Positions 11,298-47,787 of a DNA stretch of 64,000 nucleotides are shown here, one piece after another. The notes under the pieces are model-generated. The model ran no database searches. It was not told where the DNA came from and saw nothing but the letters and a program-made list of their open reading frames with translations. The position numbers were made by a program, and so were the translations under genes. Position 1 is the stretch's first letter; every line of letters starts with the position of its first letter. The stretch comes from Escherichia coli (GTDB taxonomy: Bacteria > Pseudomonadota > Gammaproteobacteria > Enterobacterales > Enterobacteriaceae): NCBI RefSeq assembly GCF_050320075.1, contig NZ_CP190021.1; one strand, given 5' to 3'.

Positions 11298-12117
11298 GGC
11301 ACTGTTGCAAAGTTAGCGATGAGGCAGCCTTTTGTCTTATTCAAAGGCCTTACATTTCAAAAACTCTGCTTACCAGGCGCATTTCGCCCAGGGGATCACC
11401 ATAATAAAATGCTGAGGCCTGGCCTTTGCGTAGTGCACGCATCACCTCAATACCTTTGATGGTGGCGTAAGCCGTCTTCATGGATTTAAATCCCAGCGTG
11501 GCGCCGATTATCCGTTTCAGTTTGCCATGATCGCATTCAATCACGTTGTTCCGGTACTTAATCTGTCGGTGTTCAACGTCAGACGGGCACCGGCCTTCGC
11601 GTTTGAGCAGAGCAAGCGCGCGACCATAGGCGGGCGCTTTATCCGTGTTGATGAATCGCGGGATCTGCCACTTCTTCACGTTGTTGAGGATTTTACCCAG
11701 AAACCGGTATGCAGCTTTGCTGTTACGACGGGAGGAGAGATAAAAATCGACAGTGCGGCCCCGGCTGTCGACGGCCCGGTACAGATACGCCCAGCGGCCA
11801 TTGACCTTCACGTAGGTTTCATCCATGTGCCACGGGCAAAGATCGGAAGGGTTACGCCAGTACCAGCGCAGCCGTTTTTCCATTTCAGGCGCATAACGCT
11901 GAACCCAGCGGTAAATCGTGGAGTGATCGACATTCACTCCGCGTTCAGCCAGCATCTCCTGCAGCTCACGGTAACTGATGCCGTATTTGCAGTACCAGCG
12001 TACGGCCCACAGAATGATGTCACGCTGAAAATGCCGGCCTTTGAATGGGTTCATGTGCAGCTCCATCAGCAAAAGGGGATGATAAGTTTATCACCACCGA
12101 CTATTTGCAACAGTGCC
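11298..12117 (-). mobile_element. IS26 copy 3 (inverted relative to copies 1 and 2)
   Basis: Terminal repeats at 11298 and 12117; tnpA on minus strand. Confidence 0.95.
11350..12072 (-). CDS. tnpA: IS26 transposase
   Basis: 240-aa ORF identical to copy 2. Confidence 0.95.
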   Translation of the reverse strand: MLMELHMNPFKGRHFQRDIILWAVRWYCKYGISYRELQEMLAERGVNVDHSTIYRWVQRYAPEMEKRLRWYWRNPSDLCPWHMDETYVKVNGRWAYLYRAVDSRGRTVDFYLSSRRNSKAAYRFLGKILNNVKKWQIPRFINTDKAPAYGRALALLKREGRCPSDVEHRQIKYRNNVIECDHGKLKRIIGATLGFKSMKTAYATIKGIEVMRALRKGQASAFYYGDPLGEMRLVSRVFEM

Positions 12118-12550
12118 CCACAAAATCCCCACGGCAGGCCTGATACGTTATGCCGTTCAGCTCCACCTCCAGATCAGTGGCAGAAGTGCCATCTGCGGGC
12201 AGACCTGCTGCCGGGACCAGCGGCAGTACGACGACTTCTGCCGCACGCTGTTCTGCCCGGAGGCGGTCCTGTTCTGTCAGCAGCAGAGGCTGTGCCACGG
12301 CCCGGCCGGCGTCCGTCAGCTCCACTGCCAGCTGCAGGTTCGGAGCGCGCAGGGTACGCAGCCAGCCGGCATCCTCCAGACGACGGCAGGAGGCGCGCAG
12401 GTTTGGCCCGTAGACCGGGGCTTCCCCGCTTCGCTCCAGCACCCGTTCTATGTCCCGCGTCAGCACGGGTCCTGGCCGTTTTTCATCAAGGGCAGCCAGC
12501 ACAATCAGCACTCTCCGCTGCAGTGGCGACGGTCGGCGGCTCTGAGTCAT
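12118..12550 (-). pseudogene. GC-rich gene of unknown function, 3' end truncated by IS26 copy 3
   Basis: ORF MTQSRRPSPLQRRVLIVLAALDEKRPGPVLTRDIERVLE... ends in GHCCK read from the IS26 terminal repeat; start overlaps the upstream gene stop. Confidence 0.6.
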
Positions 12551-12816
12551 TTCCAGTCATCCTCCGGCCAGATGAGCTTTCTGAGGCGCTGAAAGTCGGC
12601 GTCAATGAGCTCCTGTCTCTTTATGGCATTCATTGAGGCATAGCCATTTATGGCCAGTTCATGCCAGAAGATCAGCACGGCTCCGGCTTTGGCTGACTCG
12701 CAGAGATAAATCGCGCCCTGGCTGTCCAGATTGCATTCCCGGATGCGTCGTTCCGTAAACCGGGTTAGTTGTTCATAGCTGAGTGAAAACACCCTTTCTT
12801 CATCCATCCTGCACAC
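12547..12816 (-). CDS. Hypothetical protein, first gene of a two-gene operon
   Basis: 89-aa ORF translationally coupled to the truncated downstream gene. Confidence 0.5.
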   Translation of the reverse strand: MCRMDEERVFSLSYEQLTRFTERRIRECNLDSQGAIYLCESAKAGAVLIFWHELAINGYASMNAIKRQELIDADFQRLRKLIWPEDDWK

Positions 12817-12837
12817 TCCATCTGATAATGTTCTTAA

Positions 12838-12937
12838 AGGTAAAAATCACATCCTGCATGATTTGTGTGTTATTGATTTATGATAATATCAGGTATGGTT
12901 TTATATTTAATGGTGAAAATCACATCAGATATGATTT
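12838..12937. promoter_or_regulatory. Two ~26-bp direct repeats (GGTRAAAATCACATC-N4-ATGATTT) in an AT-rich intergenic region; candidate operator/res sub-sites
   Basis: Repeats at 12838-12863 and 12911-12937 read from sequence. Confidence 0.5.
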
Positions 12938-13375
12938 TATGTGTGCTGCTTAATTATCATATCTCCTGCCCGTTCTCTGCCGCACAGATCCGGTTTCCGG
13001 CTGTTACGGATCTTCCTCTCCCTCCGCACAGCGCCATCTCCCGTCAGCACAACATGTAGTGCTGAATTCAGCTGCTGATGACACTATATGTTGTGTCATC
13101 TCCCTGACCTGTGATGCGCCGCGCAGGGGCGGAAAACAGCGATATGATGATTTTCTCAGCGTGGTACACTTCCGGAAAGTTGTGATATTCCGGAAAGTCG
13201 GATCTGACGGAAACGGCTCTCCGGTAATTTAACGGCGTGGTTATATGGATGCTTGTTATCATGGTGATGATGATAACGGCATGATGTTATCAGACGGCGT
13301 GACGGTAAGGGCAGTGATGATGGATGACGTTATCGCATGACCGTCCCTGCCCGGAAAAGAAAAAAGGAGTCACCC

Positions 13376-13789
13376 ATGTTTTTTATTGAGAATGAAGGTC
13401 AGGCTGTCGCCGGAACGGATTACTGGCAGTCTGTACAGGCGCAGGCCGGATATGTCTACCTCAGCTGGAATGCCGGCGCAGCCAGGCTGCTTGTCCCGGA
13501 TGCGGCAAAACATTTACTCAGGGAGATGCGGGGGGCTGAGTACGTCATCATCAGTAAGGGAGCACTGCATGGCCGCGATGCGCTGGAACTGGTATTTGAA
13601 GACGGCAGCGATGCGCCGTTTGTGATCCACATGCTGAGTGAGCAGTGCGATCGCCTGCTCCCCGAAAACAACCAGGGAGGGGGTTTTGTTGTCACCGTCT
13701 GGACGCGTGGAGGTAACCAGCTCCGTTATCCGGGAAAGTACCGTGTTGTGGAAAACCTGCCCGACGTTTCCCCGTGGAGTGAACACTGA
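13376..13789 (+). CDS. Hypothetical protein translationally coupled to the downstream recombinase
   Basis: ATG at 13376 with AGGAG RBS (ORF track starts earlier at 13337); stop TGA overlaps TGATATG start of the recombinase. Confidence 0.6.
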   Translation: MFFIENEGQAVAGTDYWQSVQAQAGYVYLSWNAGAARLLVPDAAKHLLREMRGAEYVIISKGALHGRDALELVFEDGSDAPFVIHMLSEQCDRLLPENNQGGGFVVTVWTRGGNQLRYPGKYRVVENLPDVSPWSEH

Positions 13790-13790
13790 T

Positions 13791-14576
13791 ATGCAGCACC
13801 TGCCGGCACCGATCCACCATGCCCGGGATGCTGCTCAGCTTCCTGTTGCCATCGATTATCCGGCAGCGCTGGCACTCCGCCAGATGTCGATGGTTCATGA
13901 TGAACTGCCAAAATACCTGCTGGCCCCTGAAGTGAGCGCCCTGCTCCATTACGTGCCGGATCTGCGCCGCAAAATGCTGCTGGCCACACTGTGGAACACC
14001 GGTGCGCGCATTAATGAAGCACTGGCGCTGACGCGGGGGGATTTTTCGCTTGCGCCTCCGTATCCGTTTGTGCAGTTGGCCACTCTGAAGCAGCGGACCG
14101 AAAAAGCCGCCAGGACGGCAGGAAGAATGCCCGCCGGTCAGCAGACTCACCGGCTGGTTCCGCTCTCTGACGCCTGGTACGTCAGCCAGCTGCAGACGAT
14201 GGTGGCCACACTGAAAATCCCCATGGAACGGCGTAATAAACGAACAGGCAGGACAGAGAAAGCGCGGATCTGGGAAGTGACGGACAGAACGGTCAGGACC
14301 TGGATTGGGGAGGCGGTTGCCGCCGCTGCCGCTGATGGAGTGACGTTCTCTGTCCCGGTCACGCCACATACGTTCCGCCATTCCTATGCGATGCACATGC
14401 TGTATGCCGGTATACCGCTGAAGGTCCTGCAGAGTCTGATGGGGCATAAGTCCATCAGCTCAACGGAGGTCTACACGAAGGTCTTTGCGCTGGATGTCGC
14501 GGCGCGTCATCGTGTGCAGTTCGCCATGCCGGAAGCCGATGCGGTAGCGCTGATAAAACAACTTGAGAGGCGTTAA
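13791..14576 (+). CDS. Tyrosine site-specific recombinase (XerD/ResD-like, probable multimer resolvase)
   Basis: C-terminal HTFRHSYAMHMLYAG...LMGHKSISSTEVYTKV motifs (catalytic R-H-R-Y region); probable start MQHLPAP at 13791 within track ORF 13638-14576. Confidence 0.8.
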   Translation: MQHLPAPIHHARDAAQLPVAIDYPAALALRQMSMVHDELPKYLLAPEVSALLHYVPDLRRKMLLATLWNTGARINEALALTRGDFSLAPPYPFVQLATLKQRTEKAARTAGRMPAGQQTHRLVPLSDAWYVSQLQTMVATLKIPMERRNKRTGRTEKARIWEVTDRTVRTWIGEAVAAAAADGVTFSVPVTPHTFRHSYAMHMLYAGIPLKVLQSLMGHKSISSTEVYTKVFALDVAARHRVQFAMPEADAVALIKQLERR

Positions 14577-14823: not shown

Positions 14824-15150
14824 CTAATAATGATATTTCAGCATGATAGCAGCAATAAAATAGATTGCAGCTATCATGCTGTACACATACGGCCTAGCGC
14901 TCTGTTTATGTTATGCTATCTGCAATCTTGCGGCAATCTTGCTTCATCTGTCGATGCGATTCTGAATGAGGTTTCTTTTATTGTTAACGTGACACAAGTA
15001 TTCGGCTGTCAATTCCAGCACTCTGCTAAGTAGCAAGATTATTTATTGTTGCAATCTTGCTGCAAGCTGTTATCTTGTTCTGGAAGAGTTACTCTACCTA
15101 ATCTCAATCTGGTTTATATTGATGTTTGCTGCAAGATAGCAGCAAGTAAA
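14824..15150. repeat. Partition-site/operator iterons upstream of parA (TGCAATCTTGC and GCATGATAGCAGCAA units)
   Basis: At least six copies of the GCAAGATTGCA-type motif in both orientations, read from sequence. Confidence 0.7.
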
Positions 15151-43526: not shown

Positions 43527-43747
43527 GCTCTGGTCGGAAAAGAACTGTCTATAACTGACCTGTAGATAGTACGTCTGGAATTATATTTCTGCAAGTACTG
43601 GATAAGTGTATACTCGGCATGTCAGCTCTGAGGCATGTTCTGTCCGGCATATTGTTCAGCGGGAAGAACAGGTTACAAGTCCTGGCCAAAACATCAGGTG
43701 GTGCTGGTTTTGGTGCTCTGGTCGGAGAAGAACTGTCTATAACTGAC
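43527..43747. repeat. Pair of 33-bp direct repeats (43527-43559 and 43715-43747, 32/33 identical)
   Basis: GCTCTGGTCGGARAAGAACTGTCTATAACTGAC read from sequence. Confidence 0.85.
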
Positions 43748-45555: not shown

Positions 45556-47787
45556 TTATCCTTTTATTCCGTCCTTGTCGTCACTTCCTTTATCTTTAAG
45601 ACGATCTGTTTTCATTCCAGGAGTATGTCGGATATTGCGACTTCCTCCAATAAATATTTCTTTAACAGAATTTGCCATGCTGCCAAGAGTGTTGGCTCCC
45701 TCACGCCCACCAAGGAAATTAATAACATGATCAGGTAGGTAGGCCTGAAGGGCAAATATGGCAGCTACAGAGGTTGTACAAATTCTGGCGTATATCAGCA
45801 AGAAACCAGCAAGACTGAAAATACCGGTCAGCGAATTGAACTGTACGTTAACCAGGGCAGCGCCAAATAATGCATTCAGTATTGTGCCTACGGCGATGAT
45901 GGCAACAGAAGCAAAGAAAAAACCAAAGACCATGATGGGCGGCCTTATCATACTATCAATTAAGTATATATAACCGTAGGCTGCCCGACTTCCTCTATCT
46001 TCTGATGTTCCGAGATGTGTTGCAGCCCACAGAGGTCCGGCGGTACATCCTATTAATACACTGACTATCCAGTTCCCAATGCCTGTCATCCAGAAAATGA
46101 ATGGTATAAATGGTAGGTAAATTGATAAGGAAAAACCCGCACAAAACAACAGGAACAACAAGAAATATATTGGGGGAGCTGCAGCATCCAGCAGAGCAAC
46201 TAATCCTTTAGGTAATCCAGAGAATAAATTGGCAACCTTTCCGAAAATAGAGTTATCACCTACTGTCGCGAGAACTCTAACTGTTGTATATCCACTCCAG
46301 AGAATCTCTGTTGTTCCTAATGTATAATCACCAATATTTTTCATCTTTATCAATGGATTGACCTGATCGCTTGTTGTTCCTGTGCCACTTATCTCTGTTG
46401 CTATCCAGTTGGTTCGATAGACAAAGAAGCTCATCATTTCAGATAAGGCAGACTTAGGATCTTGCGCATTGGCCATTCGTTGCTCATTGGCTGATGTAAC
46501 AGTGCCCAGAGGTGGTGTATAGGTGGTGTTCTGTAATTGAGTCTTGTAGGCACTCATGACTGCACTGAATAAGTCAGTATCACCAACTTCTCCCAGTGAT
46601 GACATTGAAGTTACAGCTGGAGCTCTGTCAGCCAGCTCGGCCAGACGCTGGTTAGCAGTGGCAAAGGTCTGATACCATGCGCCAAGCGTTACCCACCCGT
46701 AGGTTGTGAGATAAGATTTAAGAGCCTCTTTTCTGGATTGCTCTCCGTTATCAGTGGGTAGCGATTTTTGTACAGCACGTTCATACTCGTCGGCTGCTCT
46801 CTGAATCCGTGTCTCGATATCCGGCAATGTTCCGTTGCCAGAATTTCTTTTTTCCAGAAATGTTGTCACAAACTCACTGGCAGCGTTGTCCATGTCGCTA
46901 ATCATATTATCCATGGCTGCACGTTGTGCTGAGATAACACCGCTGTATTCGTTTTTACTGAAGGGATTAAAGAATTTTCCAATCGTCGATTGATCTGTTG
47001 TTCCGTTTCCTTCTACTGACAGGCTGGCTGAACCACAGATACCGCTGCCATTGGATACCGTGACAGTGTAATTACCACTGGCGGTTTTAGCTGATTCTGT
47101 CATCAGTGAAGTCGAGGATTTGGCCGTCTGATTAAAATCATTTAGTCCTGCGTTAACCGCATACTTACACAGTTCCATTTCAAAAATGCCACGCGCTGCT
47201 GTTTGTGTGGATGCCTGAACTGGCTGTACAGTCATTGAATAACCATTTGCGATATTATCAGCGGCAAGTTGCACCATCACATTGGCGGACCCAACCCCCA
47301 TTATCGATGCGCCCCATAACATAATGAGCTGAGCGATACTCCAGCCATTTCCGGTTGGAACGATCATCAGAAAACCTGCAACGACACTCAGTGTGCCGAC
47401 GATATCGCGTCCGGTGCTGAATACCTGTCCCTGATGCCCCGAACGCACAACATGACGGATACCAATGAACATAAACCAGACAACGGCAAGTACGGCGATG
47501 ATACTGTTGAACGCCCCGAACATGCTTCCGATCAGAGTGGGGGCGCTGGTTGACAGTGGATTGGTGACTACATCACCGAATATCGTGACCAGCGCCTGGC
47601 GAGACAGATCGTCAGGATTGGTTGCGGCAGACACAATATCCTGATAGGTCACTGAAGCCATTGCCGGCAGTGAGGATATAGCAAGGCCTGCACAGAGTGC
47701 GCGAAGTAAAATTTTCACAGTAACTCCGGAATAGAATTGCGTATGGGCAAAGGCCACACAGGATTTAATTAAGGGGGATGGCGACAT
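45556..47787 (-). CDS. traY: TraY, polytopic inner-membrane transfer protein
   Basis: 743-aa multi-TM ORF; gene order. Confidence 0.85.
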   Translation of the reverse strand: MSPSPLIKSCVAFAHTQFYSGVTVKILLRALCAGLAISSLPAMASVTYQDIVSAATNPDDLSRQALVTIFGDVVTNPLSTSAPTLIGSMFGAFNSIIAVLAVVWFMFIGIRHVVRSGHQGQVFSTGRDIVGTLSVVAGFLMIVPTGNGWSIAQLIMLWGASIMGVGSANVMVQLAADNIANGYSMTVQPVQASTQTAARGIFEMELCKYAVNAGLNDFNQTAKSSTSLMTESAKTASGNYTVTVSNGSGICGSASLSVEGNGTTDQSTIGKFFNPFSKNEYSGVISAQRAAMDNMISDMDNAASEFVTTFLEKRNSGNGTLPDIETRIQRAADEYERAVQKSLPTDNGEQSRKEALKSYLTTYGWVTLGAWYQTFATANQRLAELADRAPAVTSMSSLGEVGDTDLFSAVMSAYKTQLQNTTYTPPLGTVTSANEQRMANAQDPKSALSEMMSFFVYRTNWIATEISGTGTTSDQVNPLIKMKNIGDYTLGTTEILWSGYTTVRVLATVGDNSIFGKVANLFSGLPKGLVALLDAAAPPIYFLLFLLFCAGFSLSIYLPFIPFIFWMTGIGNWIVSVLIGCTAGPLWAATHLGTSEDRGSRAAYGYIYLIDSMIRPPIMVFGFFFASVAIIAVGTILNALFGAALVNVQFNSLTGIFSLAGFLLIYARICTTSVAAIFALQAYLPDHVINFLGGREGANTLGSMANSVKEIFIGGSRNIRHTPGMKTDRLKDKGSDDKDGIKG

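Follow-up and report, generated by a model that had tools for sequence, protein, structure and literature searches.

The interval 12986-14576 of the 64-kb window (the whole stretch of 64,000 nucleotides analysed here, from the Escherichia coli contig NZ_CP190021.1) is very probably the IncI1 version of the rfsF-resD multimer-resolution (replicon-fusion) module of plasmid F, consisting of a 28-bp core site, a conserved leader, a cargo gene encoded by the open reading frame (ORF) ORF137 and the tyrosine recombinase gene resD. This assignment is carried by homology, by the identity of the site, by its conservation and by natural recombinant junctions located at the core. An earlier sequence-only reading of the same stretch had proposed a resolution site in which direct repeats on the left and GTTATCA repeats on the right serve as recombinase binding sites. 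An rfsF-type site does lie within the interval that it delimited, upstream of an operon ending in the cognate tyrosine recombinase, but its core, the crossover site, is at 12986-13013 and is distinct from the flagged repeats. Their role as recombinase binding sites is contradicted by this position and by their absence from related plasmids, the direct repeats being missing from F and R64 and the GTTATCA repeats from F. The rfsF/ResD system as such is already known, including in IncI1 plasmids: rfsF/resD has been named there and the switching of gene sets at rfsF described (PMC8004404, PMC9412624), and we count the module as known because the IncI1 literature already names it.

In F and in Klebsiella virulence plasmids, fusion and resolution at a 28-bp site were demonstrated experimentally by Xu et al., who equate it with the rfsF described by O'Connor et al. 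1986 and characterise it as 10-bp inverted repeats around a variable 8-bp spacer with the pattern AGATCCGNAANNNNNNNNTTNCGGATCT, AGATCCGNAAN8TTNCGGATCT (PMC8299605). Within the window, only 12986-13013 matches the published pattern, at 2 mismatches and against an expectation of 0.03 matches; parsed as published, this site comprises 10-bp inverted arms at 12986-12995 and 13004-13013 and an 8-bp spacer at 12996-13003. Coordinates from the literature lead to the same position, as both nt 45922 of F, given as the start of the rfsF-containing RepFIA region (PMC4398462), and nt 43,620 of R64, given for 'rfsF to yfcA' (PMC8004404), correspond to the first A of the core motif.

Some observations weigh against the assignment. 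The window holds no exact match to the published pattern, the best having TT for AA in the left arm, which reads AGATCCGGTT rather than AGATCCGNAA and thus departs from the strict form. The literature searched gave no direct experiment on this IncI1 variant site, and a consensus scan of the leader returned no sigma-70 promoter. The strict pattern is, in turn, satisfied by 12 of the 49 natural rfsF-type sites found upstream of resD homologues in the fetched loci; TT is a frequent variant among them, arm positions 8-10 carry AA or TT in all four combinations, and the invariant part of each arm is confined to the outer 7 bp.

For the conservation analysis, 80 loci with ResD relatives (47-97% identity, one genome per species; cited below by L numbers) were collected, and 42 upstream regions were aligned. 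The most conserved feature across these 42 loci consists of AGATCCG (12986-12992) and CGGATCT (13007-13013), with 14 bases of poor conservation between them; the outer core arms score 9/10, and the centre is hypervariable. The motif RGATCCG-N14-MGGATC occurs upstream of resD in 43/80 loci, in constant orientation and at distances of 772-2722 bp, compared with approximately 0.06 chance matches expected over all fetched DNA by our own arithmetic; it occurs once in the window, 805 bp from resD. The palindromes at 13044-13065 and 13077-13100, considered as an alternative core, were rejected, as their outer arms are unconserved and both flank switching and the pattern match point to 12986-13013.

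Flank switching was evident from the comparison with R64 (NC_005014), in which the pif-side left flank, the left arm and the spacer of F are joined to a right arm of the window type and to everything downstream of it. The same asymmetry was found in 14 locus pairs, which are 85-99% identical in the 200 bp right of the core and approximately 50% identical, i.e. unrelated, on its left. L005 (pCFSA664-1, IncHI2/IncN) agrees with the window in left flank, left arm and spacer and differs from there on. Flanks are switched where the spacer meets the right arm, at about 13003, which is also the position at which the BLAST alignments break off. Such natural mosaic junctions (R64/F/window, the 14 pairs and L005) indirectly suggest recombination at the core. 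It has also been suggested (PMC9412624) that IncR and IncFII plasmids took up IncI1 DNA through ResD/rfsF.

Two loci carry the left side of the window next to foreign DNA. In L005 (2694-2730), the leftward two-gene module that precedes the core in the window, together with its direct repeats, the left arm and the spacer, is joined to unrelated DNA with an AAA ATPase gene and no resD; in L004 (2688-2731), the leftward module, left arm and spacer again meet unrelated DNA, and the right arm is damaged (CGGAG). Both junctions look like relics of inter-plasmid exchange at the core.

The 261-aa recombinase is 94% identical to F ResD (the D protein) over 252 aa, matches Phage_integrase (Pfam PF00589) with an E value of 2.5e-18, and possesses the catalytic residues R73, H193, R196, H219 and Y228. 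It was previously called XerD-like; it is indeed a tyrosine recombinase, but it is not XerD, and the protein is ResD. Its scores against TIGR02225 (XerD; 83.6, cut-off 329.6) and TIGR02224 (XerC; 76.7, cut-off 335) are far under the cut-offs, and the match is restricted to the catalytic domain: the Xer profile match begins at residue 33, only about 32 residues precede this domain, and a two-domain architecture is missing. XerC/XerD was rejected on these grounds. A Tn3-type res site with a serine resolvase was likewise rejected, as the recombinase is of the tyrosine type and the repeat search gave no three-subsite layout of one motif. The junction with ORF137 has the letters TGATATG from which translational coupling had been deduced; the ORF137 stop codon (TGA, 13787-13789) and the resD start codon (ATG, 13791-13793) do not overlap but are separated by a 1-nt gap (TGAtATG), and a GGAG lies 11 nt 5' of the resD ATG.

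Among the resD-bearing sequences, six assemblies from unrelated phyla (L074-L079; Desulfosporosinus, Aquimarina, Raphidiopsis, Amazonocrinis, Alicyclobacillus and Aeromicrobium) carry resD fragments that are 96% identical and cover residues 145-258 only. The upstream sequence is identical in L076-L079 and looks, by eye, like cat (chloramphenicol resistance). These fragments are the signature of an F-derived bacterial artificial chromosome (BAC)/fosmid vector remaining in public assemblies. Two metagenome-assembled genomes (MAGs) of Gram-positive bacteria, from Collinsella (L009) and Lachnospiraceae (L060), contain enterobacterial IncI-type contigs with an rfsF leader, ORF137 or other cargo, and a resD of 90-95% identity, probably as a result of mis-binning; L060 has a second core-like site at position 241.

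Based on these data and on recombination at the 28-bp site of F, which is taken from the literature, we propose the following hypothetical mechanism, in which (i) ResD, consisting of little beyond a catalytic domain, would bind both inverted arms of the core at 12986-13013; (ii) cleavage would take place at the edges of the variable central spacer, with a two-step strand exchange through a Holliday junction; (iii) a dimer with two directly repeated cores would thereby be converted to monomers, and the same reaction between different plasmids would lead to replicon fusion and to a swap of everything left of the core; (iv) resD would be read immediately after whichever cargo gene occupies the slot in front of it. 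We infer that ResD acts on this variant core, and likewise the functions given below for the leader motifs and the palindrome. The features of the region are compiled in Table 1.

Table 1. Features of the rfsF-resD module and of the adjoining repeats (window coordinates)
Feature	Position	Strand	Evidence
31-nt direct repeats, outside the module	12834..12937	.	Repeat search, co-occurrence with leftward genes
rfsF core: left arm AGATCCGGTT, spacer TCCGGCTG, right arm TTACGGATCT	12986..13013	+	Published-pattern match, conservation, coordinates in F/R64
Conserved leader/accessory block	13014..13280	+	F/IncFIA identity, profile over 42 ResD loci
Inverted pair ACACAAcATGTAG (13047-13061) / CTATATGTTGTGT (13084-13096), with CAGCTG (13068-13073) between	13047..13096	.	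Repeat search, conservation
Near-invariant TGGTACACTTCCGGAAAGT (13161-13180) and AAAGTCGGATCT (13194-13205)	13161..13205	+	Conservation 8-9/10, 42 loci
CCGGTAATTTAA (13221-13232) and GTGGTTATATGGnTGCTTgTTATCA	13221..13262	+	Promoter-proximal leader common to non-F ResD loci; F diverges at ~13216
GTTATCA repeats: GTTATCAT-N7-ATGATAAC (13255-13277) and third direct copy (13286-13292)	13255..13292	.	Repeat search
		
ORF137, cargo gene in the slot holding ccdAB in F	13376..13789	+	Conserved protein, no known fold relative
resD, tyrosine recombinase (D protein of F)	13791..14576	+	F ResD identity, PF00589, catalytic motifs

The GTTATCA/TGATAAC inverted and direct repeats that had been reported for 13255-13305 are present as described. 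Copies were found at 13255-13261 (+), 13271-13277 (-) and 13286-13292 (+), the first two forming a perfect palindrome, and the occurrence of three copies within 38 bp is not due to chance by our own estimate (approximately 1e-3). Across the 64 kb, the heptamer is about 3-fold over-represented (17 copies vs 5.8 expected; 0/100 shuffles reached 17). The perfect palindrome is limited to IncI1-type loci (L001, L008, L060 and L094) and is also present in R64, and degenerate forms (TTATCA...TGATGA) occur in other ResD loci; its left half belongs to the segment 13237-13262, which is conserved in most non-F ResD loci whatever cargo follows. In the alignment with F, the palindrome is absent and unrelated sequence takes its place. 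Because the ResD of F is 94% identical to that of the window, the palindrome is not required for strand exchange, and its position and distribution suggest that it is probably a regulatory element of the ORF137-resD operon.

A more specific possibility, to which we give slightly less than even weight, is that the palindrome acts as an operator over the ORF137-resD promoter, bound by ResD or by a host factor and serving expression, not recombination. The palindrome precedes the ORF137 start by 84-120 bp and is part of a leader conserved across ResD loci with differing cargo, and TGTTATCAT (TGtTATCAT) looks, on direct reading of the sequence, like an extended -10 element. For F, the title of Lane et al. 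1986, as cited in PMC4398462, reports that the D protein is also a transcriptional repressor. An operator of ORF137's own was rejected, as ORF137 homologues in other contexts have no such palindrome in front of them, which marks it as part of the resD leader rather than of the cargo gene. On the other side, the consensus scan found no sigma-70 promoter at the palindrome, and the candidate -10 is offset by 3 nt from the best -10-like hexamer of the other loci in our reading of the alignment. An operator function is compatible with the assignment of the region to an rfsF-ResD module.

The leader between core and cargo gene was examined by a sensitive DNA search with 12780-13400, in which approximately 13003-13230 had counterparts of 84-95% identity in thousands of plasmids, in DNA that carries no annotation. 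As these matches included thousands of IncF plasmids in unannotated DNA, an Frpo/ssi single-strand promoter was considered first; it was rejected because the inspected copies lie directly upstream of ccdAB-resD or resD and because the window has no second copy of the segment. In F and the IncFIA plasmids inspected, the DNA directly upstream of ccdA-ccdB-resD is 84-91% identical to 13003-13229. Aligned to F, the homology extends from about 12986 to about 13215, beyond which F has the ccd promoter and IncI1 the GTTATCA region, and up to about 13215 the leader is the counterpart of the F oriV1 region. A search of the leader for structured RNA gave no relevant Rfam match, and the one match of the promoter scan (12880-12907) was no better than chance.

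Several elements within the leader are conserved. The inverted pair at 13047-13096 is conserved as ACACAAnATGT-like 11-13-mers, which in the window plasmid are extended to local palindromes at 13044-13065 and 13077-13100; the outer parts of these palindromes are not conserved across the aligned loci. Base-pair counts of the 13048/13095 inverted repeat are mostly invariant, which leaves little basis for judging covariation. Copies of CGGATCT lie at 12986 (-), 13007 (+) and 13199 (+), the third within AAAGTCGGATCT, and because AAAGTCGGATCT thereby repeats the core arm motif, we regard the motifs at 13161-13205 as candidate accessory half-sites that ResD might bind. By analogy with cer, psi and the TnpI IRS, the conserved leader elements may be accessory ResD sites; alternatively, they may be tied to the oriV1 activity annotated in F. 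Most likely, the leader supplies putative accessory binding sites and a putative regulated promoter of the ORF137-resD operon.

It is improbable that 13014-13215 serves mainly as a replication origin of the F oriV1 kind, or as some other element of replication or priming, and stands beside rfsF incidentally. The oriV-1 annotation of F does cover its counterpart (PMC4398462), and the palindromes fold well as single-stranded DNA (z-score -4.5). However, the segment is conserved upstream of resD on many replicons, including IncI1, IncF, IncR, Klebsiella, Pantoea and Rahnella plasmids, and its constant orientation and position between core and resD are easier to reconcile with a role in recombination or regulation. 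Its palindromes are, as stated, unconserved in their outer parts, and inspection of the sequence revealed neither iterons nor good DnaA boxes.

To the left of the core, the direct repeats first described as 26 bp long (12838-12937) are real but extend over 31 nt, with copies at 12834-12864 and 12907-12937 that are 81% identical. Each copy holds the palindrome AAATCA-N9-TGATTT, of which the 64 kb have exactly these two occurrences, with 0.03 expected. The repeats sit 27-130 bp upstream of the leftward gene starting at 12807 and occur only alongside the leftward two-gene module (L001, L004, L008 and L017; degenerate in L005 and L006), which suggests that they are probably an operator or promoter of this neighbouring operon. 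They are absent from R64, F and L060 and from nearly all ResD loci, and because R64, F and L060 all carry the resD module, ResD cannot need them.

Neither repeat set is a good candidate for what the sequence-only reading had proposed, namely that the direct and GTTATCA repeats are ResD binding sites that together form a multi-subsite, res-like site; we consider this very unlikely. Both sets are non-random and flank the core within 130-270 bp, the degenerate GTTATCA palindrome is conserved in many ResD loci, and accessory repeats are used by other tyrosine-recombinase resolution sites, such as pSDL2 crs (17-bp repeats) and the TnpI IRS. Yet the direct repeats are on the left, exchanged side of the crossover and follow the leftward genes to loci with an unrelated right flank (L004, and L005 with its AAA ATPase gene and no resD). 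The GTTATCA palindrome is missing from F, whose ResD works at the 28-bp core, and neither set resembles the AGATCCG/CGGATCT arm motif. That chance alone produced the flagged repeats in AT-rich intergenic DNA, as the general over-representation of GTTATCA in the window and the commonness of short two-copy repeats could suggest, can practically be dismissed; this notion is effectively refuted by conservation, the AAATCA-N9-TGATTT pattern exceeding expectation and being retained in L004, L008 and L017, and the GTTATCA palindrome in R64, L008 and L060 despite differing left flanks.

Compared with the rfsF-ccdA-ccdB-resD arrangement of F, the window module has a recombinase of 94% identity; the outer arms agree, and the right arm (TTACGGATCT) is identical. 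Over approximately 215 bp, the leader is homologous (84-91%), the order of core, leader, cargo and resD is maintained, and resD directly follows the upstream gene. In contrast, left arm and spacer are AAA/ACCCCAAG in F and GTT/TCCGGCTG in the window, and the leaders diverge at about 13216, where F lacks the GTTATCA palindrome and carries the ccd promoter. As cargo, F has the CcdAB toxin-antitoxin pair and the window a single 137-aa protein. The rfsF/resD of R64/ColIb-P9 (PMC8004404) is the same module; R64 and the window are near-identical from the right core arm onwards, across the GTTATCA palindrome, ORF137 and resD. R64 differs in having the F pif-side left flank, left arm and spacer, whereas the left side of the window is of the 'Col' type, with colicin and immunity genes upstream and a left module truncated by IS26.

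More distant parallels exist to Xer/cer, Xer/psi, Cre/loxP and TnpI/IRS (Tn4430), which share the tyrosine-recombinase chemistry and the two inverted arms with a 6-8-bp spacer; cer, psi and IRS additionally have a one-sided accessory region beside the core, comparable to the conserved leader of the window. Unlike the recombinases of the Xer/Cre/TnpI group, the ResD of the window is plasmid-encoded, acts alone and is far under the XerC/XerD cut-offs, and only about 7 bp per arm are invariant. Any resolution selectivity imposed by the leader would not be strict, because natural and experimental intermolecular fusions occur. The crs/rsd (rsdB) system of pSDL2/pSLT, described by Krause and Guiney in 1991, reportedly achieves multimer resolution by a tyrosine recombinase at a cis site that lies upstream of the gene and is partly homologous to F rfsF. 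Its crs site reportedly has eight 17-bp direct repeats. By this description, it differs from the window, in which the repeat search found no eight-copy 17-bp array. The Salmonella virulence plasmid system has also been called rfsF-RsdB (PMC9412624).

The slot between leader and resD is hypervariable, holding at least a dozen unrelated protein families across the loci (L002-L067). Its contents include CcdA/CcdB, Rx4H-motif proteins (one with a sub-threshold HEPN_RiboL-PSP match) and about ten unknown families, and the slot family of L031 (2225-2986) matches the PADLOC defence candidate PDC-S67 (E 1.5e-33). Many of the loci that were read have a resD that starts at, or a few bases from, the preceding stop codon. 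A second ResD site at the boundary of cargo and resD, in which case the cargo would be a cassette, was rejected, as no conserved motif was found near the resD starts. Among the ResD loci, ORF137 occupies the slot only in those of the IncI1 type. The start at 13376 that had been given for this ORF upstream of the recombinase agrees with the RefSeq annotation (137 aa) and lies behind an AGGAG Shine-Dalgarno sequence; the other + strand ORFs of at least 40 aa over the slot are a 150-aa extension of ORF137 (ATG at 13337) and a 79-aa ORF in another frame inside it (13386-13625).

ORF137 has no match in Pfam, NCBIfam, PHROGs or PADLOC, and a ccdAB-like type II toxin-antitoxin cargo was rejected for the window, as the slot holds a single 137-aa gene with no match to a toxin or antitoxin family. 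The protein belongs to a well-conserved family of approximately 140-aa proteins (275 hits), members of which are also found on their own in IncFII-type plasmids and in a Thiocystis prophage. AlphaFold2 gave a confident model of ORF137 (predicted local distance difference test, pLDDT, 89; predicted template modelling score, pTM, 0.85), and the predicted-fold search revealed no relative in PDB or BFVD. It is conceivable, though in our estimation doubtful, that the slot is a site for the co-expression of stability, defence or anti-defence genes with the resolvase and that ORF137 is a new kind of plasmid-maintenance or phage-interaction protein. The published rfsF pattern, for its part, under-detects the site family.

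The surrounding DNA is an IncI1-type plasmid backbone. Many IncI plasmids of Salmonella and E. coli share the segment 12115-15200 at 99.9% identity, with the gene order colicin/immunity, two leftward hypotheticals, 137-aa hypothetical, 'site-specific integrase', ParA and ParM. The IncI1 backbone homology begins at 12115, past IS26, whose right end (transposase 11350-12072; terminal repeat ...TTTGCAACAGTGCC, end at approximately 12114-12117) truncates a leftward 196-aa gene that is intact in pSD107 (L001, 5846-6436); this observation concerns 12061-12117 and 12101-12550. The two leftward proteins gave no informative family match, and fold searches with them were negative. Beyond the module, the gap between resD and ParA (15160) contains, at 14836-15150, dense inverted and direct repeats built from GATAGCAGCAA / TTGCTGCAA, for example 18-bp arms at 14839-14856 and 14864-14881 that are 94% complementary; this cluster is probably a partition site or an operator of the ParA system.

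In summary, the variable cargo slot, the uncharacterised ORF137 and the over-strict published rfsF pattern are modest leads, and surveys using the strict pattern under-count fusion-competent plasmids. The crossover at 12986-13013 marks where IncI1, IncF, IncR and virulence plasmids exchange or fuse segments, which makes it useful for annotation, and the location of the core is relevant to tracing mosaic resistance and virulence plasmids.

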